Virus record (IMG/VR): IMGVR_UViG_3300027467_000156
Location: 1-29,603 of that record
Length of the DNA: 29,603 nt
Direction: 5' to 3' (one strand)
Source: a virus
Taxonomy: Duplodnaviria; Caudoviricetes
The position numbers and the translations under genes are program-made. This document shows positions 1 to 19,870 of this stretch, piece after piece (within the stretch, counting starts at the first letter, position 1; each line of letters opens with the position of its first letter). A model generated the notes under the pieces. It did not search any database. It was not told where the DNA came from and was given only the letters and a program-made list of their open reading frames with translations.

Positions 1-1286
1 TCGTTGTGGGTCATCGTGACGGTGGGTGTGCCGACCATGGCGGTGGTGGCTGCGCTGGCGCCGCGCTTGATGGCGCCTGAGATTGTCCAGCGGGCGGTGT
101 TGCCTGCGCCGGTGACGCCTGCGATCACTTCGCCAGAGAAGCTGTATGCGGCGTTGTTGGGGAGGATGACTTGGTTGGTGGTGCCTGCGGCGCTGGTGTT
201 GCTGGTGAGGACGGTGGCGGTGGCGTCGGTGGTTTGGCGACCTAGGAGTAGGAGGGCGGACTGGGTGCGGCCAGCCGCACTGGAGATGGGGGCACTACAT
301 GCCGGGAAGACGTGATACCCGGTGATACTCCGTGTGTTGCCGTAGGAGCCACCGGAGATAAAGGAGTTCTCGCCATTGGCGGTGTTGTTGCTGCCTCCAC
401 AAATCCCGGAATAATTGCTGCTAATGACGTTGCTAACGCCGCCACCCATGAATGAGTAGGAGCCGCTTGCGTTGTGGTTGTAACCGCCACCAATTAAGGT
501 ATGTGAGCCGGAGCATGAATTGGTATCGCCACCAATAACGACAGCTCTTGAAGCTGTGGCGCTATTTGCATTTCCACCCCCCACAAACGCATACAGCCCC
601 GACGCCGTATTGCCATTACCCCCACAAACCGTGGCGTGGGTGTTGGTTTGGGCGGTATTGCTTTGGCCGCCGCCGATGAAGCTGTAGGCGCTGATCGCCG
701 TATTGCTGTCGCCTCCTGAAACAGCAGTTGCCTGGGCGGTGGCCCTATTAGCACTACCTCCGCCGACGGCACTGTATAAAGCAGTGGCCCTGTTTTGATC
801 GCCTCCAGCAATTACAGATTTGTCGCCACTTGCAACTTGTAGTGGGTCTGCACGAAAACGCTGCCAATCGACTGCATACGCTCCCCGCTTATTCCCCCCA
901 AACGCCGTGCCATCCGGCACCGCTGCGAGTGTTGCGCCTGTGCCCTTGGCGACGATGGCCACGTCGATGTTCGTGTAGCTCGCATCCGTCGCCGTCAGCG
1001 CATCGACCGGCACGGTCGCATTGGGCGATGCGGTGCTCTCGGACTCGACGAAGTGGGTCAGGCCGCCGCCGCCGCCACCACCTGCTGTTGCCCACGACAG
1101 CACACCAGATCCGTTTGTGCTCAGCACTTGACCGCTGGCGCCATCAGCAGAAGGCAGTGTCCAGATGCAGTTGGTGGCAATAGTGGTAGGAGCCTTGAGG
1201 CCGACATAAGCAGACGAATCCGCATCAGCCAGCCGCAGCTCGCGTCGCGCGTTTAGCGTTATGTCGGTTTCAAAAACCCTTGCCAT
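1..1286 (-). CDS. Tail fibre / adhesin-like protein with ~14-aa GGxxNxA beta-roll repeats (partial, runs off the left edge; absent from the ORF track)
   Basis: Read by hand from the ATG at 1286 (TGATG overlap with the upstream stop): MARVFETDITLNARRELRLADADSSAYVGLKAPTTIATNCIWTLPSADGASGQVLSTNGSGVLSW..., then repeats such as SVIAGGDQNRATAL, YSAVGGGSANRATA, YSFIGGGQSNTAQT, YAFVGGGNANSATA. No stop before base 1. Confidence 0.85.
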   Translation of the reverse strand, partial: MARVFETDITLNARRELRLADADSSAYVGLKAPTTIATNCIWTLPSADGASGQVLSTNGSGVLSWATAGGGGGGGLTHFVESESTASPNATVPVDALTATDASYTNIDVAIVAKGTGATLAAVPDGTAFGGNKRGAYAVDWQRFRADPLQVASGDKSVIAGGDQNRATALYSAVGGGSANRATAQATAVSGGDSNTAISAYSFIGGGQSNTAQTNTHATVCGGNGNTASGLYAFVGGGNANSATASRAVVIGGDTNSCSGSHTLIGGGYNHNASGSYSFMGGGVSNVISSNYSGICGGSNNTANGENSFISGGSYGNTRSITGYHVFPACSAPISSAAGRTQSALLLLGRQTTDATATVLTSNTSAAGTTNQVILPNNAAYSFSGEVIAGVTGAGNTARWTISGAIKRGASAATTAMVGTPTVTMTHN

Positions 1287-2077
1287 CAGCCCATCACCAC
1301 CACGCGGTAGGCATTAGCCGCTGGGGCCGTGGCAAACACCAGCTGGCATGTTGTCGTCGTGGGGCGGTAGACATCAACCTCCACGTCGTCGTAGTTGCCG
1401 GAGTTGGGGAACACGCGGATGATCACGTCGCGGGTGTTCAAGCTATGCGTGATCGTGTAGCTTGTGGCGCTGCCATCGCCAATGCTGGTGCTGTACTTCC
1501 GCAGCCGGCCGGACCAGTTCGCCAGTTTGGCTGGGGTGACAATGCGAGCGTCGTCCGTTCCAGCGTCCGTTTCTGCCTGCGTGGCGATCTCGGCGATGCC
1601 AGCGGTAGTCTCGCTTGCAGCTGGCGCAACAGTACCAAACGATGACCAAATGACGTTGCTGCTCTCCAGCGTGCCATTCACCTGCGTCTGTCGGAAGGTT
1701 GCACCGGCATCGGTACCTTCCTCGACTGTCGTGACGGCCTGCTCAAGCTCGGCAAAGGTGCTGGCATCCAGCGCCCGCGTCATCGCGACAGCAGCGCCGT
1801 TCCACACATAGATGCCGTTAGCGCTCTGCGCGGTCTGGTTGCGCACCAGCACGCGATCCTGCGACGCCATCGTGACGCCATCAATCGTGGCGCCAGGGCT
1901 GCTCAGGTTGACGTTGCTTTGCGTGGCGACACGACAGCTGTCCTTCCATGCCAAGCCCTCGATGGCTGAATCGACATACGCTTTGTTTGCAGCGTCGCCG
2001 CTTGCCGTAGGCGACGGCAGGTTAATGACCTTCGAGACCGACTGCAGGTCGAGGTCGGTGAAGAACTTGCGAGCCAT
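1286..2077 (-). CDS. Virion fibre-associated structural protein (263 aa)
   Basis: Phage fibre motifs DAANKAYVD, WKDSCRVAT, DRVLVRNQT..NGIYVW and ASETTAGIAEIATQAE, plus a C-terminal TITHSLNTRDV domain. Tightly coupled to neighbouring genes. Confidence 0.8.
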   Translation of the reverse strand: MARKFFTDLDLQSVSKVINLPSPTASGDAANKAYVDSAIEGLAWKDSCRVATQSNVNLSSPGATIDGVTMASQDRVLVRNQTAQSANGIYVWNGAAVAMTRALDASTFAELEQAVTTVEEGTDAGATFRQTQVNGTLESSNVIWSSFGTVAPAASETTAGIAEIATQAETDAGTDDARIVTPAKLANWSGRLRKYSTSIGDGSATSYTITHSLNTRDVIIRVFPNSGNYDDVEVDVYRPTTTTCQLVFATAPAANAYRVVVMG

Positions 2078-2078
2078 A

Positions 2079-2480
2079 TCAGATCAGGCGGGCGAGGCCA
2101 GCAGATGCTGGATTCAGTGTAACCACAGTCTGGTTGGCGCTTGGATGCGCTATGTCACCGTCGATTTCTTGGCTGCCGCTATCCAGCAATTCAACCGATG
2201 GCTTATAGCCAAGATTATGGTTAATAGTCCAAGTTGTTGCGGGTATGGATTGTGTGTGAACATAGGCAGAACCGCCGGCTGGGCCTTGAGGGCCTTCAGG
2301 ACCTTGAGGACCTTCAGGACCTTGAGGGCCTTCAGGACCTTGCGCACCTACGGGACCTTGTGGACCGGCTGTAAATGCTGTGACTGTAGTGGTAAGCGGC
2401 GTGGTTACAACGGTCGTTGTTCCATCACCTTCGATAAAAGTAACCGTATTATTTACAGCGGTAACGTTTACGGATGTCAT
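2079..2480 (-). CDS. Collagen-like (Gly-X-Y) fibre protein (133 aa)
   Basis: GPQGPVGAQGPEGPQGPEGPQGPEGPQGPAG, followed by an AYVHTQ...WTINHNLG domain. ATGA overlap with the upstream gene. Confidence 0.85.
   Translation of the reverse strand: MTSVNVTAVNNTVTFIEGDGTTTVVTTPLTTTVTAFTAGPQGPVGAQGPEGPQGPEGPQGPEGPQGPAGGSAYVHTQSIPATTWTINHNLGYKPSVELLDSGSQEIDGDIAHPSANQTVVTLNPASAGLARLI
2277..2366 (-). repeat. Tandem 9/18-bp coding repeat encoding collagen triplets
   Basis: Repeated gg(c/a)ccttcagg / accttgag units on the plus strand encode (GPE-GPQ)n. Confidence 0.85.
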
Positions 2481-2815
2481 GCGGTGTACCCCTCGCTGAC
2501 GTAGATGATGCCTTCGAGGTAATACTCTTTCAGGCCGCTTGGGTTGGTAAGTAGTACGTCGTAATAGGCTTCGTTGGGGAAGGTGGCGGTGTCGGTATCG
2601 CTAAGTGCGATTTCAATGGTGCCGGTGCTGCGGTCGGTGTAGGTAACGGTAAAGTCAGCGTACTTAGTGGTGCGATTTTGATTCCAGACCTGAGCGGCGG
2701 CAGTCCAACCGGTGAGGTTGATTACGGCGTTGTTGCTGTCCTTGAACCGCAGCGTGACGCTGTAATCCGCTCGGCGCTGGAGCGTGATGTTGTACGTGCC
2801 CGGAGAGACTGCCAT
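2477..2815 (-). CDS. Small beta-rich fibre adaptor / BppU-N-like structural protein (112 aa)
   Basis: YNITLQRRAD...INLTGWTAAAQVW...YYDVLLT...YYLEG pattern typical of phage fibre-anchoring proteins. First gene of the fibre cassette. Confidence 0.65.
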   Translation of the reverse strand: MAVSPGTYNITLQRRADYSVTLRFKDSNNAVINLTGWTAAAQVWNQNRTTKYADFTVTYTDRSTGTIEIALSDTDTATFPNEAYYDVLLTNPSGLKEYYLEGIIYVSEGYTA

Positions 2816-2824
2816 GGCTCCAGC

Positions 2825-2893
2825 TTAGCGACCCTGGCCGCGCAGCTTTTTGCGGTTGTGGCTTGGCCTGCTATGGCGGCCATGCCCTTGACC
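2825..2893 (-). pseudogene. Orphaned 3' end of the small basic 'LRGQGR' gene
   Basis: Minus strand reads GQGHGRHSRPSHNRKKLRGQGR-TAA with no nearby start. It matches the C-terminus of the ORF at 3438..3575 (DGYGKNSRPRRRGKKPLRGQGR) at about 13 of 22 positions. Confidence 0.75.
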
Positions 2894-2926
2894 TGCGCTA
2901 AGCTGACCCTGATTTTGACGTGTTTC

Positions 2927-3514
2927 ATGGCCACCACTCGCGGTATCAAACCACTGCCCCCTTTGCACGAATTAGAGACGTGGTTTGCCATTGACGGATC
3001 AGACCTTGTTTGGCGTACTAGCTATTTCAAGGAACTCATAGGCAAGCGCGCTGGATATTTGCGACCAGACGGATACATCGAGATTAGGAAACAAAATAAT
3101 AAAATGCTTGCACATAGAATCGCTTACTATATTGCCACCAAGGAAAATCCTGGCAATTACTTTATAGATCATATAGACGGAAACCCGTCTAACAACTGTC
3201 CTAGTAATTTACGAATGGCTACTGCAACAGAGAATTTGCGGAACTGCAGAAGACTGCGCAGAAACAATACGTCTGGCCGATCAGGCGTACTGTACGCCGT
3301 AGTTGGAGGCATCGAATATTGGAAGGCTTATGTAGTTGTCAAGGGTAGGCAGCTTCATCTTGGATCATACGCGACCAAAGAAGCGGCGATTGCCGCTAGA
3401 GAAGTTGCTGAAAAATTCACTTACGGAAAATTTGCCCCTATCGCCCTTGACCCCGAAGAGGTTTTTTGCCTCTTCGCCGAGGGCGAGAGTTTTTGCCGTA
3501 GCCATCCCGTGTAG
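2927..3514 (+). CDS. HNH endonuclease with C-terminal AP2 DNA-binding domain (freestanding homing endonuclease)
   Basis: AHRIAY...IDHIDGNPSNNCPSNLRMAT..EN..N is an HNH motif. NNTSGRSGV...WKAYV...LHLGSY.TKEAAIAAR is AP2-like. The gene is AT-rich and antisense to the operon. Likely start is ATG 2927, in frame with the track ORF 2678..3514. Confidence 0.9.
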   Translation: MATTRGIKPLPPLHELETWFAIDGSDLVWRTSYFKELIGKRAGYLRPDGYIEIRKQNNKMLAHRIAYYIATKENPGNYFIDHIDGNPSNNCPSNLRMATATENLRNCRRLRRNNTSGRSGVLYAVVGGIEYWKAYVVVKGRQLHLGSYATKEAAIAAREVAEKFTYGKFAPIALDPEEVFCLFAEGESFCRSHPV

Positions 3515-3575
3515 TTTTCGGCTTGCCGGGCTGGTGCTGGACGGCGGCAGTGCCGGTTTTGCTGCGGACTGCCAT
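3438..3575 (-). CDS. Small, very basic protein (45 aa) of unknown function; absent from the ORF track
   Basis: MAVRSKTGTAAVQHQPGKPKTTRDGYGKNSRPRRRGKKPLRGQGR-TAG. GGAGG lies upstream (within 3585-3590) and the start is TGATG-coupled to the upstream mini-ORF. Confidence 0.75.
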   Translation of the reverse strand: MAVRSKTGTAAVQHQPGKPKTTRDGYGKNSRPRRRGKKPLRGQGR

Positions 3576-3697
3576 CAGACTGCACCTCCCAGAAGCAGCG
3601 CTCGCAACTCATCAAGGTCGAAACCTGCGGCTTTCAAGCGCTCGGCGGCGGTCAGCGGCATAGGCAAAGCGTCGATCAAGGGAAGATACTTAGGCAC
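3575..3697 (-). CDS. 40-aa mini-ORF, or remnant C-terminus of a tail-fibre-associated protein
   Basis: GTG at 3697 has AAGGAGG 6 nt upstream: MPKYLPLIDALPMPLTAAERLKAAGFDLDELRALLLGGAV-TGA. Its stop overlaps the next ATG. Confidence 0.5.
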   Translation of the reverse strand: MPKYLPLIDALPMPLTAAERLKAAGFDLDELRALLLGGAV

Positions 3698-4100
3698 TAA
3701 GCGCCTCCTTGATCTCATCCGTGGTAGTGGCTGCATCAATGGCAGATTCGATGATGACGTACCGGGCGCGGATAGCAGCGCGAGCGGCTTCGGCCTGGTC
3801 GGCGCTGGCGCCGGGGATCTTCAGGCTGATCATGCGGTCATGCGGCGCCAGCTCATCAGCGCGGCGGCGGCGGCGAATGTCGTGCGCGATGGCCTTGGCG
3901 CGGTCCAGGTCGATCTCGATGCCATCGGGGGAGTAGACCCACGCAGCGCGGAAGGTGCGGTCGGAGGGGATCTGGTCAGCGGTGACGATGGCGTAGATGC
4001 CGTCTGGTGCGACCTGCTGGGCGACCTGCTCGATCGGCACCTCTCCGGTGGGAGTGGTGATCGCGACGCCGGTAGCGGTGGGATGGATGATGTAGGTCAT
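3690..4100 (-). CDS. Putative tail fibre assembly chaperone (136 aa)
   Basis: Directly downstream of the tail fibre. PSDRTFRAAW...IDLDRAKAIAHDIRRRRRADELAPHD...IDAATTTDEIK resembles fibre-assembly proteins. Confidence 0.7.
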   Translation of the reverse strand: MTYIIHPTATGVAITTPTGEVPIEQVAQQVAPDGIYAIVTADQIPSDRTFRAAWVYSPDGIEIDLDRAKAIAHDIRRRRRADELAPHDRMISLKIPGASADQAEAARAAIRARYVIIESAIDAATTTDEIKEALSA

Positions 4101-4103
4101 GGG

Positions 4104-5252
4104 TCAGCGGAAGATAGACACGCCAACGTAAGGCATGTCTTGAAGGCCAGTTGCACTGTTATTTGTCTGAATACGGACTGAGTTTGCGGCAATGCTTGTA
4201 TAAGCGTTGCCGCTGGTTGGCCACACACCGGAATAGCCAGGGTTGCCGGTAGTGCCGTCACCACGATGGATAGTCGAGTTTACACAGTAGCTTGCATCCG
4301 GCATCGCCGTCGTGAAGTTCACCGTATAGTCACCCACGCCATTGTCAGTGATGCTGCTGACGTTGTAGCTGGCGCGGATCGCCACGATGCCGGTGCCGTC
4401 GAAGTTGACCCAGGCGCGGCACAGTTGCCCGCCAACACTGCCAGGGCTGAGTGCCTTGGTGTTGTCGTAGAACCCAACCGGATCGCTGCTGAGTGTGGCG
4501 CCTGCATTGGCGCTGAGTGTGACGGTGGTGCCGCTGATGCTGGCGACCGTCGTGCCGGGTGTGATGCCTTCGCCGGTCACCACCATGCCAGCAACGATGC
4601 CGGTGGCGCTGGCGACCGTCAGGCTGGCGGTGCCGCTGGTGATGGTGCCAGTGGTGTGGATGCCATTGATGTCGGTGCGGGTGGCCACAGCGGCGCCAGC
4701 ATCACCCCATGTGAGCGTGCCACTGCCGTTGGTCTTCAGCGCCTGTCCGTTGGTGCCATCAGTAGCCGGCAGCGTCCACGTAACATTGCTCGATACTGTA
4801 GCCGGCGCTTGGAAGGCTACCCAGTTGCTGCTGTCGCTATCAGCCAGGCGCAGGTCACCTTGACCGTAGATGGTGACATCACCGGCGCTGCTGATGCCAA
4901 CGCGGCGCGTGCCGCCAGTGGCAAAGTCAAGCGCATCAGTACCGCTGCTGTAGATGCCGGTGTCAATACCGGAGTCCTTGAAATACAGCGATGGCGCTGC
5001 AGCAGTGCCGTTCTCAAGGGCAATGCTTGTCCACTCTCCATCCAGTTGGTAGAGCGTGATCCAGGCTGAGTTTGCGCCATTGCGCATCTTCATCACGCCG
5101 GCCGTGGTATCGGCCCAGCGCATGTATGCGAAGGTGGTGCTGGGCTCAGCGGCGCCACTGTTCTGGCTGACGATCGCAGCCAGGGCGTTGTTCAGGTCAG
5201 CGCGGAAGGCGGCCCCGGATTGGTTGGCAATCGCGTAGTCGTGCTGCGCCAT
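4104..5252 (-). CDS. Tail fibre / receptor-binding protein (382 aa)
   Basis: N-terminal anchor MAQHDYAIANQSGAAFRADLNNAL, GTAAAPSLYF..DTGIY shaft motif and C-terminal RAWVNFDGTG..IRASYNVSSITDNGVGDYTVNF domain. Follows gpJ. Confidence 0.85.
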   Translation of the reverse strand: MAQHDYAIANQSGAAFRADLNNALAAIVSQNSGAAEPSTTFAYMRWADTTAGVMKMRNGANSAWITLYQLDGEWTSIALENGTAAAPSLYFKDSGIDTGIYSSGTDALDFATGGTRRVGISSAGDVTIYGQGDLRLADSDSSNWVAFQAPATVSSNVTWTLPATDGTNGQALKTNGSGTLTWGDAGAAVATRTDINGIHTTGTITSGTASLTVASATGIVAGMVVTGEGITPGTTVASISGTTVTLSANAGATLSSDPVGFYDNTKALSPGSVGGQLCRAWVNFDGTGIVAIRASYNVSSITDNGVGDYTVNFTTAMPDASYCVNSTIHRGDGTTGNPGYSGVWPTSGNAYTSIAANSVRIQTNNSATGLQDMPYVGVSIFR

Positions 5253-8200
5253 CAGATGACCTCCCGGCCGTAGCCGATGGCAGTGTAGCTGAACTGGCGC
5301 GAGATCATGCTATTAGCTGCGTTGTAGAAGGTGATCGAGAACCCAGACCGGGTGGGGCTGCTGATCACATAGTAATCACCCGTTGCCATGTTGTATGCGG
5401 TGATGCCAAGCTGCGGGGCCTGGTAGAAGCGGTTAGCGAACGTGACCGCATAGGCTGCTGCAGCTGTCGTCAGCGGGCCAGCGCTGGCGCTGCGTTGCTG
5501 TAACTCAAGCTCACAACCAAGCTCGTCGATGACGATGTTTTGATCGTTGCTGGTGCTGGTAGCAATGGTCTTGAACTGAAATGCGCGGCCACGGGTCAAC
5601 GCATTAGCAAACTCGCGCCATGCCGTCCACGCGGGCGACGCGCCAGGATCGTCGTTGGTAGAACGTACATAAAGCGCAGCGTTGACAGCATCATAAAGCG
5701 TGCCATCAAAGGTGGGCCACGTATCAATCAATGCGGTATTGTCATCGAACAGATCGCCAGGCGCATAAGGCCGTGTGACAAAATACCGGCGCATGTCAAG
5801 GTCATATACGCCACCTAGATCAAAGGTACTGCCGAACTCGTATTCCCCAGAGCCCAGGCTGCCGCTTACGGCGTCGATGGTACCTAGTGCGTCCCAGTTG
5901 CCATCCGTTGCTAATGCGTCGATCTTGGTACCGGTGGCGAGGATCAGGCCATCTAGCTCAGCGCTGTAGATCATGTCGGTGACATTGCCCGAGAATGGCG
6001 GCGTCTCTTGATCTTCACGGTAGGACTGCACCAGTAGGCGCGGTTGCGGCGCCGGCAGTTGTACTACAGCGGTGGCAGCGGTGGCAGAACGTCGGCCACC
6101 GTCATCCTCAAACTTGACCAGATAGGTGCCGGTCAGTAATGGCACTTGCTTTTGCGTCTGGCTTCCGGCTGCTGCTGATACGATCTCTTGGCTATCCTCC
6201 CATAACGCACCAGTGCTAGCGATGTTATGGCGGATCAGTACCTTGCCGCCCAGCAACACATCAAGCTCAGTAGCACGATCCCAGCTGAGGATAGCGCTTG
6301 CCGTGTCGATAGGGATTAGCGACAGTCCAGTTACAGTGGCAGGCGGTGCCGTCTTACCAGCGGTTACCTTAGTTAGCTCTGCCGGTTGTGTTGACGGCAG
6401 CAGTGATGCGCTGAGGCTGTAAACACGCACCGCATAGGTGCCTGGTGTGGTGTCAAGGATCTCATAGTCCGGGCTGCTGACTGTGCGGGTATTCCAGTTA
6501 TCGCTATCGCGACGCCACTGCACTTGATATTGCGTGACACCAGTAACCGCCCGCCAGCTAATGATCAGCTTTGCCTTGGCGATACCACCAGCGTCATAGA
6601 GCACTTCATTTCCTGTCAGGTCGATCGGCGGTGGCGGGACGATGTTTAGGTCTGTGATGTCCCGTTGCTGCAGCGCGATGTCACGTTCAACGTAGGCGTA
6701 CTTACTGGCGTTATAGGCCAGTGCGGTAACGCCATACTGATTGCCTTCGTCTGTTTCAGTAATAGACAGCACCCGCCATGTTGATGCTTGTATATTGCTG
6801 GTTTGATACACCCATACGCTGTTTGCATTAGGTGCGGCACTGAAATTACTGGTAACGACGATGCTATTGCCAACAATGGATTGGATAGCGCGTGATTCAA
6901 CGGCGCCGGTTGGCAAGATGACCGATAACTCAGCGCCGGCTACGGCTGATAGGCCGGTAGCATCGTCTACGGTGATAGTGGAGGCGGAGGCGGCTGCTAT
7001 GCGTCCACCACGACGTACCCCAGCGCGTAGCGGATCTGCCACCTCGATCACTTGGCCAGGGCGTACAACCACACCGGCGTCGATGCTGGTGGTGAAGCTG
7101 ATCACCTCAGATTCGTAGCGCTCGGAGTAGAGTAGCCATTCGCCTAGGCGATGCGCCTGTCCACGGCTAGTGCAGGCAAAAGCGTCTACTTCTTCCTTGA
7201 CAACACCGTATTTGCTTATGCCATCTTGATCCTCAACTACCTCGTAAGCCTTCTCACGTGTTTCAAGGTCAAGGTAACTGACCACGGCAACAGTAGGTCG
7301 TGCCTTACGGCTGCTGCCTTGATAACTAAAGCCCTCTGCTGTGACATTGGCTAGCGTGAATAGGTATGCGCTGTCAGTTGGCTTGTCCTGGCTGATTGTT
7401 AGCGTACCAATGCCCCAGTAGGGCATCACACGCATAACGCTGCACAGATCATTGATCAGCTTGTATGCCTCAGTTTGCGTCTGGATGTTGACATTACAGC
7501 TAAAGCGTGGCTCCGTCCCGCCGAAGCCATTAGGCACCAACTCGCTGGCGTATTGCGAAGCTGCCAAGAACGCCCACTTATCAAGCTGCGCTGCTTTGAT
7601 GTGATCGCCGAATCCGTAACGTGTGCTGGTGAGCAGATCCCACAGGATCCAAGCTGGATCGCTACACCACTGCGCAGCGCCAAAGGTGCCATTCCAGATG
7701 CCGGCATAGGTCAAACGGCCGGTTGCGCTATCAACGGTGGCATTGCTAGGGATTTGTACCTTGATGCCCCGGATGTGGTAGGCGCGTGATGGGATGTTAT
7801 TGAACTGCTCTGCGTCAAGCCGTAGCGCTACCAGTGCGCTGTTTGGATACCGCAGTTTGGCGTAAATAATCTCAGTGTATGAGGTCCATTGGATTGCGCT
7901 AGAGGACTCGATAACATTGGAGTCTTGCTCAATGCGTGTGCTATCCGACACTGAGATACGTGTTACACGAATATCAGCGGTGGTAAAGCCATCGGTTAGG
8001 TTGACGATGTAATCGGTTTGAAATGGATCAGACGTGCGCCCAGAGATTGCGTCTGTAATCACTGTGGTAAAGCCACCGCCGTCATACTGAACAGCGATAG
8101 AATAGGTTACGGATAACCCGTAAACGTTGCCGTCTTTTGCGCTCTGCTGCAGCTGTGGAATTGTGAGCGTAACCCGTACTGCATTGACATTAGGGTCTGC

Positions 8201-8557
8201 AATTTGCCGCGTTACTGGCGTGCCATATTGCACCTCAACGCTGACAGATACCTCTTCTTCTACGTCAGGCGCAATGGCTATGTAGGACTGTGCTTGTGTG
8301 CCGGTGCGCGTATCAACCGTGATACCTTGAAAATTGTATGAGCCGTCTGGATTTTGAAGCGGTGTGTCGTTCAGGATGATTGACTGCTGGCCGGCCTTCA
8401 GGCCTTCGATCTCGCCTTCGCTGATGAGATCAACGATGGTGGCATATTGGCGCGAGTCAAGGCTGTCACCTGCGACCGTTGGAGTGCGTTGCGGCTCAGA
8501 TCGTGAGGCTCCGCCGCCACTTCCTCCACCACCAGCACCGGCAATCAGTTTGCCCAT
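5252..8557 (-). CDS. J: Tail tip / central fibre host-specificity protein (lambda gpJ-like, 1101 aa)
   Basis: DLISEGEIEGL, YHIRGIKVQIP, WCSDPAWILWDLL, EPRFSCN and ACTSRGQAHRLG motifs, FN3-like segments, and position after gpI. Confidence 0.95.
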   Translation of the reverse strand: MGKLIAGAGGGGSGGGASRSEPQRTPTVAGDSLDSRQYATIVDLISEGEIEGLKAGQQSIILNDTPLQNPDGSYNFQGITVDTRTGTQAQSYIAIAPDVEEEVSVSVEVQYGTPVTRQIADPNVNAVRVTLTIPQLQQSAKDGNVYGLSVTYSIAVQYDGGGFTTVITDAISGRTSDPFQTDYIVNLTDGFTTADIRVTRISVSDSTRIEQDSNVIESSSAIQWTSYTEIIYAKLRYPNSALVALRLDAEQFNNIPSRAYHIRGIKVQIPSNATVDSATGRLTYAGIWNGTFGAAQWCSDPAWILWDLLTSTRYGFGDHIKAAQLDKWAFLAASQYASELVPNGFGGTEPRFSCNVNIQTQTEAYKLINDLCSVMRVMPYWGIGTLTISQDKPTDSAYLFTLANVTAEGFSYQGSSRKARPTVAVVSYLDLETREKAYEVVEDQDGISKYGVVKEEVDAFACTSRGQAHRLGEWLLYSERYESEVISFTTSIDAGVVVRPGQVIEVADPLRAGVRRGGRIAAASASTITVDDATGLSAVAGAELSVILPTGAVESRAIQSIVGNSIVVTSNFSAAPNANSVWVYQTSNIQASTWRVLSITETDEGNQYGVTALAYNASKYAYVERDIALQQRDITDLNIVPPPPIDLTGNEVLYDAGGIAKAKLIISWRAVTGVTQYQVQWRRDSDNWNTRTVSSPDYEILDTTPGTYAVRVYSLSASLLPSTQPAELTKVTAGKTAPPATVTGLSLIPIDTASAILSWDRATELDVLLGGKVLIRHNIASTGALWEDSQEIVSAAAGSQTQKQVPLLTGTYLVKFEDDGGRRSATAATAVVQLPAPQPRLLVQSYREDQETPPFSGNVTDMIYSAELDGLILATGTKIDALATDGNWDALGTIDAVSGSLGSGEYEFGSTFDLGGVYDLDMRRYFVTRPYAPGDLFDDNTALIDTWPTFDGTLYDAVNAALYVRSTNDDPGASPAWTAWREFANALTRGRAFQFKTIATSTSNDQNIVIDELGCELELQQRSASAGPLTTAAAAYAVTFANRFYQAPQLGITAYNMATGDYYVISSPTRSGFSITFYNAANSMISRQFSYTAIGYGREVI

Positions 8558-9165
8558 CAGCCGCGCACCCTTACGGTGTCGATACCAGCGCTGATGACAA
8601 CGCTGCCGACGATAGTTTCACCATAGACAATCGGCACTGGCAAACCTTGCCGGCTGGTGTTTTGGATGCCGCTAAAGCTAAAGCTTTCGCGTGGGTCCGC
8701 TTCGCGGTTGCCGCTTGTGCCTGGGCCTGACAGGCGTGGAGTTGGCGATAGCAATTGCGCAACACCAGTAAGGGCAAGACTAATGCCAACACCAGCCAAT
8801 GCAGTGCTAACAGCCAACGGTGCAGCAAGTCCAAGCAGTCCGATAGTGGCGCCGCCGGTGAAAAAAGCACTAGCAAATAATGCCACCCCTGCAATTATCT
8901 TGCCAACGCCACCGCCAGCACCGCTGATCACCGGCATGATCTTGATTACCTGCTGCCCTACTGGATCTGCTAGTTCATCCTCGCCGAGATCGTAACCGCC
9001 GACAGTGACACGGTAGTGCTGGTCTGCCATGTGGCGCTCCAGGCCGGGGAAGTTGACCGCCAGGAAGCGCACAGCCTCGGCTGCGCTATCGACTGCGGCC
9101 TCAAAGGTGCGCTGCCCGAGGAAGGATGCCAGCTTGCCATAAACGCGGATTTTGCGCAGCATCAT
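8557..9165 (-). CDS. I: Tail assembly protein (lambda gpI-like)
   Basis: [10 protein letters not shown]...AEAVRFL and C-terminal [26 protein letters not shown]. The likely start is ATG 9165 (ATGA overlap with the gpK stop), not 9216. Confidence 0.92.
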
Positions 9166-9884
9166 CGAAGCCTTAGCCTGCCCGCATCGTAATGCCGCAG
9201 CCTTCGGCCGGTGCATTTCATCAGCCAGCCACCGTAGAGATCACGACTGCTAAGCCGACCGCGTAGGTGGTGCAGTATCAGCTGATCACCGACGTAGACG
9301 CCAACATGATTAAGCTTGTTGTTGTCGATCGCCATCAGCAGTGCATCACCAGCCTGTAGCGGTTCATCTTCTAGCAGCTCGCGGAAGCCTGCAGAGTGCC
9401 AGTAGCGGTCGAACAACGGATCCGCCTCAAACGCTTCTGGTGTTAGCGGTCGATCCCAGTCCAGCAGCTGCAAACCATGCTCGGCGTACCAGTCGCGAGT
9501 TAGTGTCCAGCAATCCATCAGCGACCACACCCACGGCCTGCCAACCAGCGGCGGCTTGTAGCCGGTTGGGAGCAGCTCTGCGCTCCACGCGCCGGATTTC
9601 GGGTTGCAGATGTACCACGGCAGGCTGGAGCGCTCGATGCCGGCAAGGTCTGCAGCGCTTGGCACCGGCGGCATTGCCGGGTGACTGTGGATGATGGCGA
9701 TGATCTCGCCGGCATCCTCAGCGGCAGCATAATCCTCGGGATCGAGGATGAACTGATCCGCGTCGGTGGATAGGTTGCGGCAGTGCCAGTAACGACGGCG
9801 ACCTTTGACAACCACCAACAGACCGCACGCCTCGCGTGGGTCCTCGGCCTGTGCGTGCTGCAGCGCCGCATCTTGCCATGTCAT
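9162..9884 (-). CDS. K: Tail assembly protein (lambda gpK-like; JAB/MPN plus NlpC/P60)
   Basis: PREACG and HSHP....PSAAD (JAMM motif). DCWTL...NHVGVY...LHH (NlpC/P60 Cys-His-His). Confidence 0.95.
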
Positions 9885-10561
9885 GCGTTGAAGGCCCCCA
9901 CACCAGGGAATGATCCAAATGGCAGCTCAGCGTAAGTGCCGAAGTGCGCCTTGCACGCCGCTAGTGTCTTATCGCATGTTGCCAAGCCGCCGGTGTAACC
10001 GCACTCGGTTGATTTGTAGACCCATTGGCACACGTTCGCGATGCACTGCCGCTTCGGTGCGCGGATGCCCGCTAGGTCAAACGCCGCCGCTAGTTCAAAC
10101 TCTACAATGTCGCGTGTTTCTACTACCTTGCGATCGACATAGTAGATTTCACGCGGTAATTCAGCGGTCGGATCCGGTGCGCCGTATGGGTTGGTGTTGC
10201 CGGGGAAGTTAGCGCCGTCGATGTAACGGGCTAGTGTACGCACCCGAGTAAACTTGGCGCCTTCCAGGCCACTTGGCAAGCTGAGCAGCAGCGCGGTGAT
10301 GGTGCCCATGATATTGCTGACCTGCACCTTGGGACGCGGCAGTTGACCGTTGCCGCTGTATTCAAACCCCGTCGCTTCGATTGGAAAACGCATGTAACTA
10401 TTGCCGTTCCATGCCACTTCGCCATTAGCGTTGAGTGAGCTGCCAGCGTGGAAACGGTACGTTTGCGTTATACCATGCTGCGCTGTATTTAGATCAAGCT
10501 CAAACAGCTCGATAATGGCGCTAGGCGCAATCGCCTGTAGATCGGAGACTGGTACGGTCAT
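9881..10561 (-). CDS. L: Minor tail protein (lambda gpL-like)
   Basis: FPIEATGFE...LPRP and [10 protein letters not shown] motifs, with a C-terminal Cys cluster (CQWVY...ECGY...CDKTLAAC) like the Fe-S ligands of gpL. Confidence 0.95.
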
Positions 10562-10573
10562 CAGCTGCGCAGC

Positions 10574-10909
10574 TTAGGGCTCGAAGACACGCCTAAATGT
10601 GGCGCGTGCCGTGTTACTTACACAGTTGCTAGCAGACACATCCCACTGCTCGCAGACAAACTTACCGGGTGTTCCCCAGGGAGGGGTCCAGTCGAAGGAC
10701 TCGACACCACCACGGGCAGCCAAGAAGGCGCGTATCTCGTCGCGTTCAGCGGCGGTGCGCTCGGAAAAGGATAGCTGCCACTCCTCGGGATCGGTGTTCA
10801 GGCCGAAGCGCGTGCGCTGCTCATAGCCATCGCCGAACTGCGTCTTGCGAACACGCGGCTTGTGCGATTCGCTTACGTCGTAAGAGGCGGTCCAGGTAAA
10901 CGTGGCCAT
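10574..10909 (-). CDS. M: Minor tail / distal tail protein (lambda gpM-like)
   Basis: PRVRKTQFGDGYEQR...GLN and FL...GG..SFDWTPP...ATFRRVFEP motifs. Confidence 0.95.
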   Translation of the reverse strand: MATFTWTASYDVSESHKPRVRKTQFGDGYEQRTRFGLNTDPEEWQLSFSERTAAERDEIRAFLAARGGVESFDWTPPWGTPGKFVCEQWDVSASNCVSNTARATFRRVFEP

Positions 10910-10954
10910 TGGCGCAGCGCGACAGCGAGACTTAGCAGAGCAGATACAACCAGC

Positions 10955-13900
10955 TTACGAAGCCAAGAGGCCACCGGGGCGTTTCTGATTGACCAGCTCC
11001 TGTTGCACAACAGCAGCGATCACTCGGCCAAGCGCTTGTCCTTGGCCGGCGTCGCCAGACATCTGCTGGTTGCCGCTGGCATCCACGTTGACTTGGATCG
11101 TGATTGGGGCCGCACCACCGCCGGAGGACTCGACGCCCAGCCTGCCGCTGGGGAGGCGGCGGAGGGGCATGATCGCCTCGGGGCCGGCCTCGCCGGCCAC
11201 GCCGTTACGCATAAGCCCGCCATCGGCGAACTTGAACATCGTGGGCTTGTTGACGACGCCGCCATAGGCGAATGGGACGATGCGGTTGGCTGCATCGAAG
11301 GCGCCGCCGTAGGCAAACAGGCGCGTGCCGGGATCAAACGCTAGTGGGTTGGCAGTAGCCGCACTGAAGTTGAGTTGCGGTGCGCTTAGCCCGGAGGCGC
11401 CAGATGCGGCGGGTGACGGGGCCAAGAAACCTATTGCCTGCATCAGTGAGCGCATGATGAATTGCCGGACAATGATGCGGGTCATGTCAGCAACCAGGCT
11501 GGTGGCGAACTCGCGGAAGTTGGCTGTGCCAGTGGTCATCAGGCTGGTGATGGAGTCTTCGACGCCTTTGAAGCCAGTCTGGGCGAGGTCGGCAACGTTG
11601 GAGCGGATGGTGCCGATGGATTCGACGTAGGCAAGGGCGCCTTCGCGCAGGCCGGCGTAGGTGTTTGGATCCTGCTTGTAGCGTTGGATTTCCTTGAGGT
11701 GATCGACCGTAGTGGCCAGTTGTTCCAGGTGCTTGCGTACCGGTTCTTCGAGCTTTTGCCAAGAATCGCCGTAGTCGGCGATGAGGGTGTCGAGTGTCGT
11801 AACTTCCCCCTTACCGCGCTGCAGTTCGGTGATCTGCTTGGTAAGTGTCTCGACGGTGGAGCGAGAGGCAGCACGTTGATAGTCGGCCGTGGTGAGTTCG
11901 CCGGCTCGTTTCAAGAAAGCGGTAGCCGCTGGGCCGCCTCTCTTGGATACATCTACTACGGCTCTTTGTACGCGGATCTGCAGGTCATCAAGTGTGCGTT
12001 CAAACTCGTTTACGTTCCGCTGGTCGAAGGGGGCACCTAGGCCGGCGAAGATTTCCTCGTTTATCTTGCTTATGTCTTCGCCGATCTGAGCAACCGTTTT
12101 GTTGTAGGCTGTTTCGATCTTCTGGCGCTCTACGTCCAGTGTCTGTAGAGACTTAGTGTAGATGTCGGGCGTAATTTGATTGTATTTTTTCTGCAGATCG
12201 AGTGCCTGCTTACGCAGAGTAAGTTCGTCAATAGCGAACTTCTTAGCAAGATTAGCGCGGTCAAACTCAGTGGCAGCTTGTTCCTCGGAGAGCTGACCGC
12301 GAGCTTTGAGCAGCTCGATGTTGGCGTTTACATATTCGTTAGCCTGCTGGAATAGGTCGCGTTGTTGTTTGGCTGCATCAGCGCCTGCACCCGCAGCGCC
12401 GGCGGCAGTCCCTGGGGGCTCGGCGAAGCCGGGCATAGAAGGCGCAGTGGGAGCGTTAGGGGCACGACGAACAAGTGTTTTGTACCGTGACTCCAGTAAT
12501 GCACTCTCTGCTATAGCCGCTTGTAGGCGAGGTTCGAGTTCATTAAGCTTAGCCCCGAAGTATGTAGCCATACTGGGGGACGCCTCAAAGTCCTTCTTTA
12601 GTTGTTCTCTTTCTCGCTGTAGCTTAACAACCAAGTCCTGTACGACTTGGTAGCGCCTGCCTACGTCGTTAGCAACACGTAGTACACTCGCTCTGTCCAG
12701 AGCGAAACCGCCTATATCGCGCAGGAACTGTTCACCCGTTGCTTCCGATCTAACCTGTATAAGGCGGTCTTTCGCCCGCTTAATCCGGTTAAAGTAGTCG
12801 ATAACAAGATCAGCACCAACAATAGCGACCGAAATAATAATCGGGCCAGCTAGTGCTGCGGCGGTAGCCCTTGCTGTAGCGGCAAATAGTTTAAGTTGCC
12901 GCTCTGCCATGATTGCTTGTGCTGTGGTACGGCCAAAGGCAGCGCCCATAAGCGCAGCAGCGCCGCTGACCAGGGGGCCTAGTGCGGCGAAAGCGCGACC
13001 GGCATAGATCGTGGAGGTGAGGACGACACCGAACTTGGCAACCAAGGCGATTGCACCGGCGTTGGCGCCAAGGGCTTGAATGACCTTGGCCAGACCTTGA
13101 GCCAGGTTGATGAGTGCGGGGGTGGCGTCCTTAAGGGCCTTGGCGAAGACGGACTGGAACTGCGCACCAAGCGGCTGCAGGGCGCGGCCTACGTCTTCGC
13201 GCATCTTGTCGTAGGCGACTTTGAGGCGTTCGCCTGCGTTTTCGCTGGAGGCAGCGATCTCCAGGGCGGTTTGACCGTGCTTGGTGCGGAGAAGTTCAAG
13301 GAACTTCATCAGATCGTTGAGGCCGATCTTGCCCTGTTCGAGGCCCTTGGCCAGTTGAGGACCGGTGCGGCCGGTGGCCTCGGCAAAGAGGGTGTAGGTG
13401 CCGGGGAGGCGTTCAGCGATCTGGTTCAGTTCTTCGGCGCTTACCTTGCCTTTGGAGAAGACCTGCGTGAGGGCGAGCATGGCGCCATCTACCTGCTCGG
13501 CCTTGCCTCCGGTGGCGGTGACGGCCTCGGTAAGAGCGCGGAAGGCGAAGGTGGACTGGTTGACCGTGCCACCGGCGCCGAGGATGGCGGCGCTAAGGCG
13601 GGTCAGGCCGCCGATTGCGGCTTCTTGGGGGACGTTGAGTTCGCGGGTAGCGGCGTTCGCGGCAGCGAGCACCGTGTTATAGGAGGCCTGGTCCTTGACG
13701 ATGCCACGCAGGGCGATCTTCATCTTGTCGAGCGACGCGGCATAGTCCGCAAAGCCCGCCAGCTGCTGACGGAACATACCGACCTGCGCACCGGCGGCGG
13801 CACCCGCAAACGCGCCGCCGACACCGCCAAAGGCCAAGCCGCCAAGACCGCCGATAAGACCCTCGGGACCGCCGAAGATCCCCCCGCTGAGTGCGGCGCC

Positions 13901-16900
13901 GACGCCTTGGGCCATTTGCATACCGCTTAGGGGACGGCGGCGGGTTCGGTCGCGGCGTTCCAATTGCCTGTCGATTGCAGCCGTCTGCTTGTCGATCTGG
14001 CGATTGAGCGCGGCGTAGTCGGAATCGAGGGGGGAAAGCGAGGCCTGTAGCTCGTCAAGCACCGAGCGCAGATCCTGCAGGTCGCTGATCGACCGCCGGC
14101 TAAGCGGGCCGAACTCACGCAGGCGAGTGTTCAAGCGGTCCATGCCGCGATCGGCACCACTGTCGCCAGGACCACTAGGCGGCGTGGGCGGCAAGTTGCC
14201 GCCGCCGCCTGCGGGAGGTGTACCACCACGGCCACGCATCCCAAAGGACAGGCCACTAAGGCCCAGGCTGCCAAGCTCCCTGAGGTTGGTGGTGCTTTGC
14301 TGCAGAGCGGTACTCAGGCTGGTGCGCAGCGTCTTGATAGGTGCCAAGGTCTGGTCAACAAGCTGTTTAGCCGTGGGGACTACGCTCTTGACTGCTTCGA
14401 TGTCGAGGCTGCGCAGTTTGGTGCCGGCCTGCTGCGCGGTGGTCTGGATGCTGGTGCGCAGTGTGACGAGCGGGCTGGTCACACGATCAATAAGGGTGCT
14501 TGCAGCGCTGCTTAGGGCGGCACTACGGGAACGCGACTCGCTTAGGTTCCGGGCGAGCTTGCTGGCGCCGACCTGAGCCGAAGCGCTGATGATGCGCCGC
14601 AGCGTTTCGTAGGTTCCGGTCTCGCCGTTCCAGAAGTTGTCGGTGGCGGCTCGGTACTTGATGAGCGCCTCGCGCAGAGAAGACGAGGCGGCTGCACGAC
14701 CAAAGGTTTGCCCGCCTCGGGTAAGCGGTCCATCTGTCTGGAACCTGCCAAGGTCATAGGGGGCGAAAATGCCTGGAGCTTGGCGCAGCGCAGGCGCTTG
14801 CGTTCCGAATACAGGAAGCGCGGTGGCGCCGCTGGACGGGCGCGAAATGCCAGGCACGGCGCCGCTAAGCCGCGTGACGGGCTGCAGCACCTCACGACGA
14901 AGGGCGGAAGCCAAGGGACCAACGAACGCACCGGTGCGGCCTACGGCTCGCATGGCTTCGGCGCGAATCACCTCCTCCAAGCCTGCGCCGGGGATCCCGG
15001 CGGTGCCGCGCAACCCGCGACGCTGCTCTACAGGTAGGAACGTTGGAGGAACAATGCCACCACGCTCGTAAGCACGCCGGTAGGTGGCGAGGGGTAGTGC
15101 CGCTGAGTTGGTAACGCCCTCGCCGAGAAGACGGGCAAAGGGCAGAGTGGCAGAGGGGCGGGCACTCGAACGAATAAGGAAGTTCTGCAGCTTGTCCGCT
15201 ACGTCTGATACCGGACCACCTAGGCCGCCAGGCAGCGGAGCCTTGGCAGGACTACCCAGCGCAAACTGAATGGCAGCTTGGATCTGCTTACGGCCAGCCT
15301 TGATGGCATCTACGGTTCCCTTGACGATGCCTTGCCCAATAGGTTCACCGACCTCACGCCTACTTACGCCCGAAGGACTATGAATATCCCAATCACCGAA
15401 GATAAAGTCAAGGTACTTATCAACAAGCGACTTACTTCCTTTCTTAAGTGTATCACTGTCTGTGGCGCCCTTGACGATGCCCTGAGCTATACCTTCGCCA
15501 ACCTGCTGACTGCGATTGTCAAGCAGATTGGTGCGGGAGCCCGTCTCGAACGAGGCAACAATGTCGTTGTAGACCTCGGCGGGCGATTTGCCCATGAAGG
15601 CTTGTTGGCGGCGTAGGCTGGAGGAGGACAGCCCCACAACCCGTTCGTAAAGAGGTGACAGCTCACGCCCACCGTCTACGCCAAGCGCCTCGGCCATAAG
15701 GCTGTGGCGGCGGGCAACAAGATCGCGTTGCTTTAGGCTTGCGTCAAACTGCGCTAAGAGTGCATCGTTTGCGGCTTTCTTCTTAGCCAGCTCAACTACA
15801 GCGTTGTGATCTAGGCGAGCTTGATGTTCGCGATTAGCCTGCTCTTCGATGGCACGTTTAGCAGTTTCGTGGTCGCGGACCACTTGCAACATCTGGTCGT
15901 AGGCTTCTTCCCACTTGCCGAAGGCTTCCTGAACTTCGCGCACAGCGGCGGCCTGGCGCTCGCCAGTCACACCACCGATACCTTCGTAGCGTTGGCGAAC
16001 TTCGCTGGAGAAGGCACCGAAGCCACTTTGCGCTAAGGTTTCGCGCTGCGCTGCCATGCGTTGCCGGATGGCGAAGACCGCGTAGTTGGTGGGCATACGG
16101 CCCAGCTCGGTGATGCGGGTCTGGAGGCGTGTGGCCTCGGCGGCCAGACTGCGGAACTCCTCGGTACCCTCGGCGGTGGCACGGTTGACGCCGGCCATGC
16201 GCTGTTGGAGGTACTGCAGACGCTCGTTGAGCCCCTCGACGGTTACGGAGGAGCCGCGCACACGATCGCGGTATTCTTCAAGGACAGTGGCCTGAGCGCG
16301 GGCCTCACCGCGCTGCACGGATTCCAGGCCGGCGATCTGAGAGGCAAAGCTACGGCTGCGAGGGCTACCTGCCGGAACACTTGCAAAGGCTTCGCGGGCG
16401 CGGTTCAGCTGCTGCCCGATTTCCGCCATCGACATGCGACCGATGTAGTCGCCTAGGCGGGAAAGTTCGACGATTAGCTTTTGTATGTCGTCTGTGATTG
16501 CGGTAAACGATGCGTCGATGTCGGCACGTACAGCGTCCAGCTCGTTGCCTACGCGTTGACGCATAAACGCCATGGCCGTGATTACGGATCCTGTGGCTAC
16601 AGCAGCGGTGGGGCTTATACCGCTAAGCGCTGAGGTAAAGCTATTAGCAATCTCGCTAAGTGACTCTATACGGTTCTGAAAATTAGCGAACTGCGCAGAA
16701 CTTTCGGCAAGATTCTTAGATAGACCACCAAGTACCTTATTCCCCAGGTCGCCGCCAAATAGACCACTGAGTTTGTTAAGTCCAGTCTGCAGCTCGGCCA
16801 CCCGTCCGCTAAGGCCGGCAAGAGCAGATGCGCCGCCGCCGAACGCGGCCGTACCGATGCCAGTAGCCTGTCCCGCAAGAACACCAGCAGTAATACCTTC

Positions 16901-17530: not shown

Positions 17531-17899
17531 CTAGTCCTCCTCCTTCTTGTTGAGCGTGCTCAGCGCGGCGCCTTCCATGAGTCGGAGATCCTCAAGCATG
17601 GCAACGCGGTCCTCAACGCAGTATAGATCGAAGAAACCGCCAGGCATAAGCAGGATCTCGTACTTGAGGCCGAGGTAGCCCGCCATGGTGGTGTTCCACT
17701 GCGTTTGCATACGCAAGAACATAAGCACCGTGTCCCAGTTTTCGTCCCAGACCTCGTAGGTAGTAGCGGAATCGGAGGGGGAGGAGGCCGACGAGGAAAG
17801 TAAGGCGGGGTCGAGGCCGAAGGCAGCCGCGTCATCTACGGTCTTGTCTTCGACCTGCTTACCGCCGGCCCAGAACTCAGCGGCGCCTCTCAGTTTCCC
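17531..17899 (-). CDS. T: Tail assembly chaperone, -1 frame part (gpT moiety of the G-T fusion, about 228 aa in total)
   Basis: The -1 frame is open from the slippery site (LRGAAEFWAGGKQVEDKTVDDAAAFGLD...EVWDENWDTVLMFLRMQTQW) and continues into track ORF 17531..17728. Confidence 0.88.
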   Translation of the reverse strand, partial: GKLRGAAEFWAGGKQVEDKTVDDAAAFGLDPALLSSSASSPSDSATTYEVWDENWDTVLMFLRMQTQWNTTMAGYLGLKYEILLMPGGFFDLYCVEDRVAMLEDLRLMEGAALSTLNKKEED

Positions 17900-18216
17900 T
17901 CGCGGGCTCCCTCAAAGGTGTCGGTGTAGGCAGACAGGACCCCGCGCACCCAGTAAGGGTCGTCAACAAACTCGGTGAGGGTCTCGGTGGAGAAGGGGAT
18001 TTCGGTGCCGTCTTCTTCCTTGATGCCGGACCAGTCGAGGACGAGTGCTTTCAGCAGCGGCAGATCGCCCTTGGTGCTGAGCTTGGTGAACTCCTTACGG
18101 CCCATGCGTTTGAAGGTGGCCTCAAACGTGCTGGGATCGAAAGCACCACCATCGGCAGGCTCTTGAACAGTGACAGGCCACTTGAAGGTGCTGACCTTCT
18201 TGCGAACAAACGCCAT
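17890..18216 (-). CDS. G: Tail assembly chaperone (gpG-like, 108 aa)
   Basis: MAFVRKKVSTFKWPV...REGN-TGA, between the tail tube and tape measure genes. The likely start is ATG 18216, because the longer track start lies inside a terminator. Confidence 0.88.
   Translation of the reverse strand: MAFVRKKVSTFKWPVTVQEPADGGAFDPSTFEATFKRMGRKEFTKLSTKGDLPLLKALVLDWSGIKEEDGTEIPFSTETLTEFVDDPYWVRGVLSAYTDTFEGAREGN
17893..17899 (-). other. Programmed -1 ribosomal frameshift slippery site G GGA AAC
   Basis: GAG GGA AAC TGA is an X XXY YYZ heptamer in the correct phase, right before the gpG stop. Confidence 0.9.
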
Positions 18217-18258
18217 AAGGGGTTGCGTTGAAATGTGGGTAAGTTCAGTGTAGGCATG

Positions 18259-18308
18259 AAAAAGCCACGTAGGCAAGCAGCTCTAAGGGGCTGCGTAACT
18301 ACGTGGCT
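18259..18308 (-). terminator. Intrinsic terminator after the tail tube gene
   Basis: AGCCACGTAG-ttac-GCAGC-cccttaga-GCTGC-ttgc-CTACGTGGCT-TTTT: long interrupted hairpin plus U-tract. Confidence 0.8.
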
Positions 18309-18313
18309 AAGTT

Positions 18314-18353
18314 GCGTGGCTGCAGCGCTGCGTGGCTGCAGCGCGGCTTAGGC
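18314..18353. repeat. 8-bp tandem microrepeats (GCnnnGCT-like) at the tail tube stop
   Basis: gcgtggct|gcagcgct|gcgtggct|gcagcgcg|gcttaggc. Confidence 0.7.
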
Positions 18354-19511: not shown

Positions 19512-19517
19512 CGTGAA

Positions 19518-19769
19518 TCACCGCTGAGGGGAATGGGGCAGCGTCCGCTCGACAAGGGTGCGGATGCCTGTAGCCGAGTCCAAGATGTAGGTGCCACCTT
19601 GGCCGCTGTAGTCCTCTTCAAGTGTAAGAGGCGTGGTTGCAACATCCTTAGCCTCACGCTTAGCAGAGACGCTAGGTGTGGTGTCGGTGAGCACGGGAGA
19701 ATCAAGCGATTCGTCGTCAGCAGAAAATGTTGAATCGTCTGCAGACGTGGGTGCCGTAGAGCGCGGCAT
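19518..19769 (-). CDS. Small hypothetical protein (83 aa), disordered acidic N-half and a GQGGTYILD motif
   Basis: Operon-oriented ORF filling the gap between the terminator and tube genes. C-terminal EEDYSGQGGTYILDSATGIRTLVERT looks ordered. Confidence 0.65.
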   Translation of the reverse strand: MPRSTAPTSADDSTFSADDESLDSPVLTDTTPSVSAKREAKDVATTPLTLEEDYSGQGGTYILDSATGIRTLVERTLPHSPQR

Positions 19770-19785
19770 AAGCCTTTGGCAGGTA

Positions 19786-19830
19786 AGTGTATGGTAGGCG
19801 GTGAGGGTTGTACTGCTTCGCGGTACTGCT
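19786..19830 (-). promoter_or_regulatory. Putative late promoter, copy 1 of AAGCAGTACAACCC-N6-CCTAC
   Basis: The 14-mer at 19805-19818 is identical to 26887-26900 and is followed by TACCAT/TACACT -10-like hexamers. A further AGCAGTAC lies at 19823-19830. Confidence 0.6.
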
Positions 19831-19870
19831 AAGTCACTAACTAGGACGAATAGCAGCGCACCACCGCAAC

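Follow-up and report, generated by a model that had tools for sequence, protein, structure and literature searches.

Non-splicing elements that carry a nuclease gene together with a replacement 3′ end for the gene they enter have been described as WHO elements at the yeast FBA1 gene (Coughlan et al. 2020, PMC7282813). According to the accessible parts of that report, the old 3′ end is displaced downstream, where the decaying fragment serves as the second homology arm, the fragments start at approximately one position, and some of the WHO genes are antisense to the host gene. Allele-specific cleavage has been shown for WHO6, and the 3′-replacement scheme has been shown experimentally for the WHO elements (PMC7282813). 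A related arrangement is described for gene hybrids in fungal mitochondria (atp6 of Allomyces macrogynus and atp6, atp9, cox2, and nad3 of Glomus), where a foreign C-terminal part comes with an endonuclease, the displaced native end matches an empty-site relative, and the inserted end is divergent (PMC3630166). The free-standing seg and mob nucleases of the T4 type also reside outside introns and inteins, combine an HNH domain with a C-terminal DNA-binding domain, and are associated with co-conversion of the flanks; a duplicated gene end is not mentioned in the accessible part of the review on T4-type homing (PMC2988022).

Here we analyze a locus with such a duplicated gene end in a phage. The window, i.e. 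the whole stretch of DNA that was analyzed, is a virus record of 29.6 kb (29,603 nucleotides), and its minus strand carries a tailed phage's genes for packaging, head, and tail. We are confident that positions 2891-3515 constitute a cassette made up of an antisense HNH-AP2 nuclease gene and a substitute 3′ half for a very small gene, and that this cassette likely spreads by homing, with cleavage by the nuclease as a presumed step. The target gene stays whole because the insert brings a differently spelled copy of the back half of the gene on the strand opposite to the nuclease. The features of the locus are as follows:

2477-2815, minus strand: 112-aa LtfC-like tail assembly/adaptor gene, downstream of and outside the element (PF23926, E 1.7e-6)
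2822-2827, minus strand: putative leaderless-promoter -10 box for the adaptor gene, overlapping the TAA of the stub (motif only)
2825-2890, minus strand: displaced original 3′ end (start-less stub) with TAA at 2825-2827; right homology arm
2891-3515, no strand assigned: whole cassette, delimited by left- and right-anchored alignment with L005
2896-2904, plus strand: putative -10 box (TAAGCT at 2899-2904; motif only) of the nuclease gene, on the cassette's right edge
2927-3514, plus strand: HNH (HNN)-AP2 endonuclease gene, 195 aa (Pfam HNH_3, phrog_99)
3438-3515, minus strand: replacement 3′ end of the T-T-R-D-G type, codons 21-45 and TAG; part of the cassette
3438-3575, minus strand: resident small basic gene of 45 aa with TAG at 3438-3440 (phrog_516)
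3516-3575, minus strand: 5′ half of the resident gene, codons 1-20, from comparison with L005 and L006; left homology arm

The empty state of the site is found in locus L005, where a lone gene of 44 codons stops 9 nt ahead of an adaptor gene that is 98% identical to that of the window. Aligned from the left, L005 tracks the window to position 3516; when the alignment is anchored on the right, identity extends from position 2890 across the whole stub. The 625-nt cassette stands where this empty allele has 9 nt (codons 21-23), giving a net gain of 616 nt, and its GC content is 47% compared to 59% for the window. The 5′ half of the resident gene is identical to L005 in 57 of 60 positions and to the cassette-bearing allele L006 in 60 of 60, and the stub is identical to the 3′ half of L005 in all 66 positions and to the stub of L006 in 57 of 66. 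The HNH profile has no match in the 58.7-kb record of L005, which is 65% complete. A second empty allele, of the T-R-Q-G type, is gp050 of the cultured phage S-CBS4. A preliminary description, made from the letters of the window, had recognized the intact 45-aa gene, the start-less second gene end, the antisense HNH gene, and the AT-rich nature of the insert, all of which were recovered here, and had proposed that a replacement 3′ end and an antisense HNH gene had invaded the small gene and displaced its original end. It had also predicted HNH-less relatives with a single gene before the adaptor gene, and L005 is such a relative.

The locus set comprised 80 loci fetched via the downstream adaptor gene, among which L001-L004 are repeats of the window and L006 carries the same insert with variants. 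The allele comparison covered 115 distinct alleles, 11 with the nuclease gene, 95 without it that had 700 nt or more of sequence downstream, and 9 too short to score; loci L149-L206 entered solely the automated allele scan. A second gene end, which the preliminary description had named as counter-evidence if present in HNH-less relatives, was found in 0 of the 95 HNH-free alleles, the one weak match being unrelated sequence.

The sequencing runs that contain the stretch are river metagenomes. An assembly artefact was ruled out because the whole stretch is present in one assembled piece in three of four DNA runs examined (which are possibly the source of the window itself) and because near-identical cassettes occur in other records (L006 and L121). 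The stretch is also present in six RNA runs, and we compared the contigs of four of these, which give neither strand nor level and may derive from DNA. One contig of run X15 (record 4), corresponding to 3345-3506 of the window, is a diverged relative of the cassette with 10 differences over 3422-3506, and it shares a river RNA library with the version in the window. As to the phage itself, the best match of the terminase among cultured phages is Synechococcus phage S-LBS1 (45.5%), the phage records matching the small gene are Synechococcus phages in 26 of 26 cases, and S-CBS4 has the gene order of the window (tail fibre genes, the small gene gp050, and the 113-aa tail gene gp051), which together make a cyanobacterial host likely. 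In another part of the window (24976-25024, minus strand), five closely spaced CTAAGC words are found at the portal gene's end and before the capsid gene; they are perhaps promoter-like or repeat motifs.

The nuclease gene probably starts at the ATG at 2927, as judged from alignment with its relatives. The HNH part of the 195-aa product is matched by Pfam HNH_3 (E 8.8e-12) and by phrog_99; the AP2 part is matched weakly by Pfam (E 0.023, below cut-off) and by a profile match to WRI1 (E 0.0012). A structure model (pLDDT 78.7) has an HNH half that a flexible linker joins to an AP2-like half, followed by a tail of low confidence; residues 121-165 form three strands and a helix, which match AP2 folds at a probability of 0.94-1.0 with E>0.001. 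The best matches in the fold search were the intron-encoded enzyme I-HmuI and AP2 domains, none of them at E<=0.001. The likeness to I-HmuI (PDB 1u3e) covers the nuclease half only and includes the D-H...N...N catalytic motif. Residues D81, H82, N90, and N103 are invariant in 35 of 35 clade proteins and align with D74, H75, N83, and N96 of I-HmuI, of which D74, H75, and N96 are reported as catalytic (PMC12724721). The dN/dS of the nuclease core is 0.04-0.09 in 11/15 computable pairs (4/15 saturated), which indicates strong purifying selection on an intact enzyme. In a tree of 30 HNH proteins the sub-clades are supported; we draw no order of events from it because its backbone is open and the outgroups are long branches. 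The HNH genes at loci L088, L089, and L142-L148, which have 28-41% identity and were inspected, do not adjoin the small gene. More distant HNH-type ORFs were seen at L093 (approximately 1.2-1.6 kb upstream of the small gene), at G002:C1:971-1336, and at 1096-1605 of L137.

The nuclease frame runs past the AP2 domain so that its last 24 codons are antisense to the replacement end, and its stop codon at 3512-3514 marks the left junction. Within the overlap the dN/dS is 0.15-0.39 in the small-gene frame (12 of 15 pairs with synonymous changes) and 0.8-3.6 in the nuclease frame (pairs with L123 or L125). Most changes are silent when read in the small-gene frame, which does not hold for the nuclease frame, and these ratios point to the small protein as the selected product and to the nuclease tail as a by-product. 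Tails that fit antisense coding of the final G-Q-G-x-stop of the small gene are present in 34 of 35 clade proteins compared to 0 of 85 other HNH matches, and they occur in two different frames, the second of which gives a shorter overlap. From these tails the whole nuclease clade, down to 47% identity, appears to be tied to the small gene, with DNA context provided by 13 alleles.

A TGnTAnnnT word faces the nuclease gene at the right edge of the cassette in 8 of the 11 loci scored and also in L139, but not in L141; in L134 and L135 such a word is found 6 nt before the nuclease ATG. In the lineage of the window the TG of this word is replaced by CG, and in L121 the first T of the -10 word is a C as well, so that the putative nuclease promoter was possibly turned down after invasion while the nuclease remained intact. 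On the other strand, 28 of 45 distinct upstream sequences (L001-L080) have a TAnnnT word at exactly 6 nt ahead of the adaptor ATG, and none of the nine upstream sequences with an SD-like word has it. It overlaps the stop of the small gene in 20 of 22 cases, where the stop codon itself supplies the TA. The word probably represents a type of leaderless promoter used by these phages, and if so, the stub would retain the promoter of the next gene and insertion would be cheap. A consensus promoter scan gave three other sites and no sigma-70 site at either motif, for which reason both promoters are proposed from the conservation of -10-like words.

Thirteen distinct alleles (including L006, L087, L121, L123, L125, and L134-L141) have the cassette at the same codons; two of these, L125 and L136, fell below the thresholds of the automated allele scan and were assigned by eye. 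All 13 sit against the stop of the small gene, while the genes upstream and downstream vary and the neighbours and stubs differ among phages. Six of the stubs are intact, four are decayed by stops or deletions (L123, L125, L134, and L135), two are not recognizable, and one is cut by the end of the contig. In ten alleles, representing both sub-clades, the stub starts within about two codons of one place; no recognizable stub was found at L139/L140 and L141, though the nuclease gene is present there. Decay of the stub next to a resident gene that is intact agrees with the prediction of the WHO model, as far as the model is set out in the accessible text (PMC7282813). Locus L087 is carried on a 62-kb record whose one long match of more than 75% to positions 1-19900 of the window is 2821-3581 (88%), i.e. 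the small gene with its cassette. Within this match the replacement end (73/78) and the nuclease core (466/511) are better conserved than the 5′ half (42/60) and the stub (48/66), and both neighbouring genes differ. Read from such alignments, the cassette spreads laterally across phage backgrounds. The flanks of the window also differ in their affiliation: to the right of 2890 the window shows 7 differences to the empty L005 and 70 to the cassette-bearing L006 over 566 nt, while to the left of the junction (3659-3516) it shows 1 difference to L006 and 5 to L005 over 144 nt.

The insertion point coincides with the family motif T-x-Q-G, where Gln is found in 96 of 120 family proteins among the matches listed, in 21 of the 27 alleles without HNH from the adaptor scan, and in 71 of 95 nuclease-free alleles overall, a sample biased by the queries used. 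None of the 13 resident alleles of cassettes has this Gln (they have RD, KD, RS, KA, SI, or SD instead), and it is present in 9 of 10 readable stubs. The contrast is significant (Fisher p 1e-8), and p is 0.002 when only four lineages are counted in view of the relatedness of the cassette alleles; four is perhaps the number of independent lineages behind it. The nuclease is inferred to recognize a site that includes the Gln codon, a predicted determinant of cleavage. Non-Gln alleles also occur without the nuclease gene (RD 11, SI 6, and QD 1 of the 95), and in a scan for the D-allele pattern 14 of 28 loci were nuclease-free genes of the replacement type. The replacement allele is thus a natural allele class, as judged from these sequences. 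The HNH-free allele closest to the replacement end of the window is L113 (73/78), with a -10-like word directly after it, which makes L113 a candidate for the donor class or for clean nuclease loss. The element probably captured a pre-existing allele, the alternative being loss of the nuclease from such alleles, and since non-Gln alleles exist without the nuclease the predicted “resistance” may be borrowed from standing variation or coincidental.

In the mechanism that we propose, empty T-[R/K]-Q-G alleles of a phage that co-infects the cell would be nicked or cut by the nuclease in the vicinity of codons 20-24. The cassette would then be copied during repair, with the 5′ half of the gene as the left arm and the stub of the donor as the right arm. 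In the recipient, the native 5′ half would be joined to the incoming 3′ end, which is predicted to be uncuttable, and the old 3′ end would be pushed downstream to become a new stub, making splicing unnecessary. The homology arms inside the gene are just 60-70 nt. No ERF, RecT, Sak4-like, or Rad52-like genes were found in two near-complete records of the phage of the window; an ERF gene is present in the record of L087 and a Rad52-like gene in that of L005. With such short arms and no recombinase of the four families found in these two records, the repair route proposed here is tentative.

The layout could also have come about without any cutting, if the nuclease gene landed once behind the stop of one allele and was then carried passively by mosaic recombination via the conserved tiny gene, with the stub as a by-product of illegitimate crossover. 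That replacement-type alleles occur without HNH and that some cassettes lack a stub would fit this account, as would the proposal that HNN-AP2 genes of Xanthomonas phages are mobile without sequence preference (made in the accessible part of PMC2248197). The three-way breakpoint described above requires homologous recombination only, and an ordinary crossover within the stub would yield the same breakpoint. We nevertheless regard passive movement as improbable, since a clade of 47-99% identity stays on one gene in two tail frames, the codon at which stubs start is almost constant across both sub-clades, the residents never have the majority Gln, and the nuclease core is under strong purifying selection. 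Another possibility, to which we give only a slim chance, is that the nuclease is kept mainly as a weapon of its phage against co-infecting competitors with a sensitive allele and that the cassette is copied as a secondary effect. A capacity for interference competition can come from homing nucleases (PMC11620839), lactococcal phage HNH proteins lower the plaque numbers of a related phage approximately 1000-fold (PMC12724721), both according to the accessible text of these reports, and the family of possible targets is large, with at least 1592 clusters. The cassette is, however, rare, since even with targeted searches included just 11 of the 106 alleles scored have it, and it moves between backgrounds with fresh stubs like a selfish element. 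The weapon account is compatible with homing, and the two differ only in what selects for the gene.

Very little credence is given to a transposon or IS-like unit with a 10-bp target-site duplication, or to a self-splicing intron. A 10-bp direct repeat does exist at 2884-2893 (+) and 3443-3452, as the preliminary description had reported, but it does not bracket the insert as had been claimed, its left-hand partner lying approximately 60 nt inside the cassette. The target-site duplication was rejected because the repeat is absent from one junction and is not conserved in eight other cassette loci checked, where the longest shared word is 4-9 nt. Both copies encode the tripeptide G-Q-G, and internal repeats of at least 10 nt are found within 7 of 85 HNH-free single alleles; the repeat appears to be incidental, G-Q-G being coded twice. 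An insertion sequence was dismissed in the absence of a conserved repeat at both junctions and of any match to a transposase family, and a group I or II intron or other structured RNA in the absence of an Rfam match at E<=1 within 2400-4200, with a resident gene that is complete without splicing. Contig joints that skip the cassette were absent from four RNA runs, which counts weakly against splicing since only contigs were searched. A co-occurring empty allele likewise left no joint across the cassette in the contigs of four RNA and four DNA runs, from which rare variants are dropped.

The gene targeted by the homing cassette belongs to a family (phrog_516) whose profile matches 16 of 16 aligned alleles over the whole protein, the allele of the window at E 0.0012, and a profile search gave at least 1592 clusters. 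The protein has no Pfam family match. In the Atlas its neighbours are unnamed clusters (recognition 2095), and ribosomal L41 as the nearest named cluster (0.76) was taken as chance. Directly upstream of the adaptor gene the small gene is apparently frameshifted in five of the 80 adaptor loci (L058, L060, and L062-L064), and at many other of these loci it was not found upstream of the adaptor gene. The frameshifts hint that the gene can be lost, and it may be dispensable. In the T4-like cyanophage S-RIM14 (L208, 2501-2650) the small gene is found two genes ahead of the baseplate genes gp25/gp6, so it is located among tail genes in both phage types. Its product may be a small virion or assembly peptide, and we flag this tiny gene family, with its large number of clusters and its purifying selection, for attention.

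The locus shows how a nuclease gene can enter a phage gene without an intron or intein, by a route that is proven in yeast. The case is testable, as the junctions are exact, a natural empty allele exists, and the recognition prediction concerns one codon; a cultured phage with a T-R-Q-G empty allele is at hand in S-CBS4 on Synechococcus CB0101. Elements of this kind are a possible cause of the mosaic breakpoints seen inside genes of phages, and they offer a natural counterpart to gene drives with a recoded target. Tentatively, and with less conviction than for the cassette itself, we suggest that phages carry a WHO-like third class of homing elements, of which the present clade would be the most compact form, with its resistance allele overprinted by an antisense frame that extends from promoter to stop. 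Such elements may have chased a gene of 44-45 codons across dissimilar cyanophage-like genomes with arms of 60-70 nt, under a pressure that produced the non-Gln alleles.

A description of this 3′-end-replacement layout in phages was found neither in the openly accessible literature, which covers a minority of subscription journals, nor in the accessible text of three phage HNH surveys. Phage HNH/HNN-AP2 endonucleases share the HNH-AP2 architecture, and the accessible parts of the reports on these describe no replacement gene end (PMC10448857, PMC2248197). The ShiLan insertion in a phage methylase is likewise a non-splicing homing insertion with overlapping frames and a hidden out-of-frame HNH, but it is described as read through in frame within the host protein and has no duplicated end (PMC11855218). 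As precedents the preliminary description had named fungal mitochondrial elements and the intronless homing of phages. The former analogy, together with that of the WHO elements, is the better one, whereas the T4 seg and mob genes lie between other genes and their products cleave at a distance of hundreds to thousands of bp from them, according to the accessible text (PMC2988022); the cassette of the window is inserted inside a coding sequence, at codons 21-23, coincident with the predicted cut, and leaves a stub. Compared to the fungal hybrids, which are mitochondrial and where in the atp6 case a LAGLIDADG ORF is co-transcribed with the host gene (accessible part of PMC3630166), the window has an HNH-AP2 gene on the opposite strand with a putative promoter of its own. 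The agreement with the WHO elements extends to a full-length host gene with a foreign 3′ end, a nuclease gene, a displaced native 3′ fragment, the existence of empty-site alleles (L005 and S-CBS4 gp050), and a stub start that is fixed within about two codons. The WHO proteins are related to HO/VDE and have a zinc finger, whereas the nuclease of the window is an HNH-AP2 protein outside that family, and the WHO elements are active in diploid meiosis and form stacked clusters, whereas the cassette is a single copy in a phage with a target of 44-45 codons (compared with the accessible text of PMC7282813). What is new here, also relative to the WHO elements as described in that text, is a nuclease frame that crosses the replacement end in antisense and has its stop codon at the left junction (PMC7282813). 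By analogy, the cassette would work like the WHO elements and the fungal gene hybrids while belonging to neither protein family.
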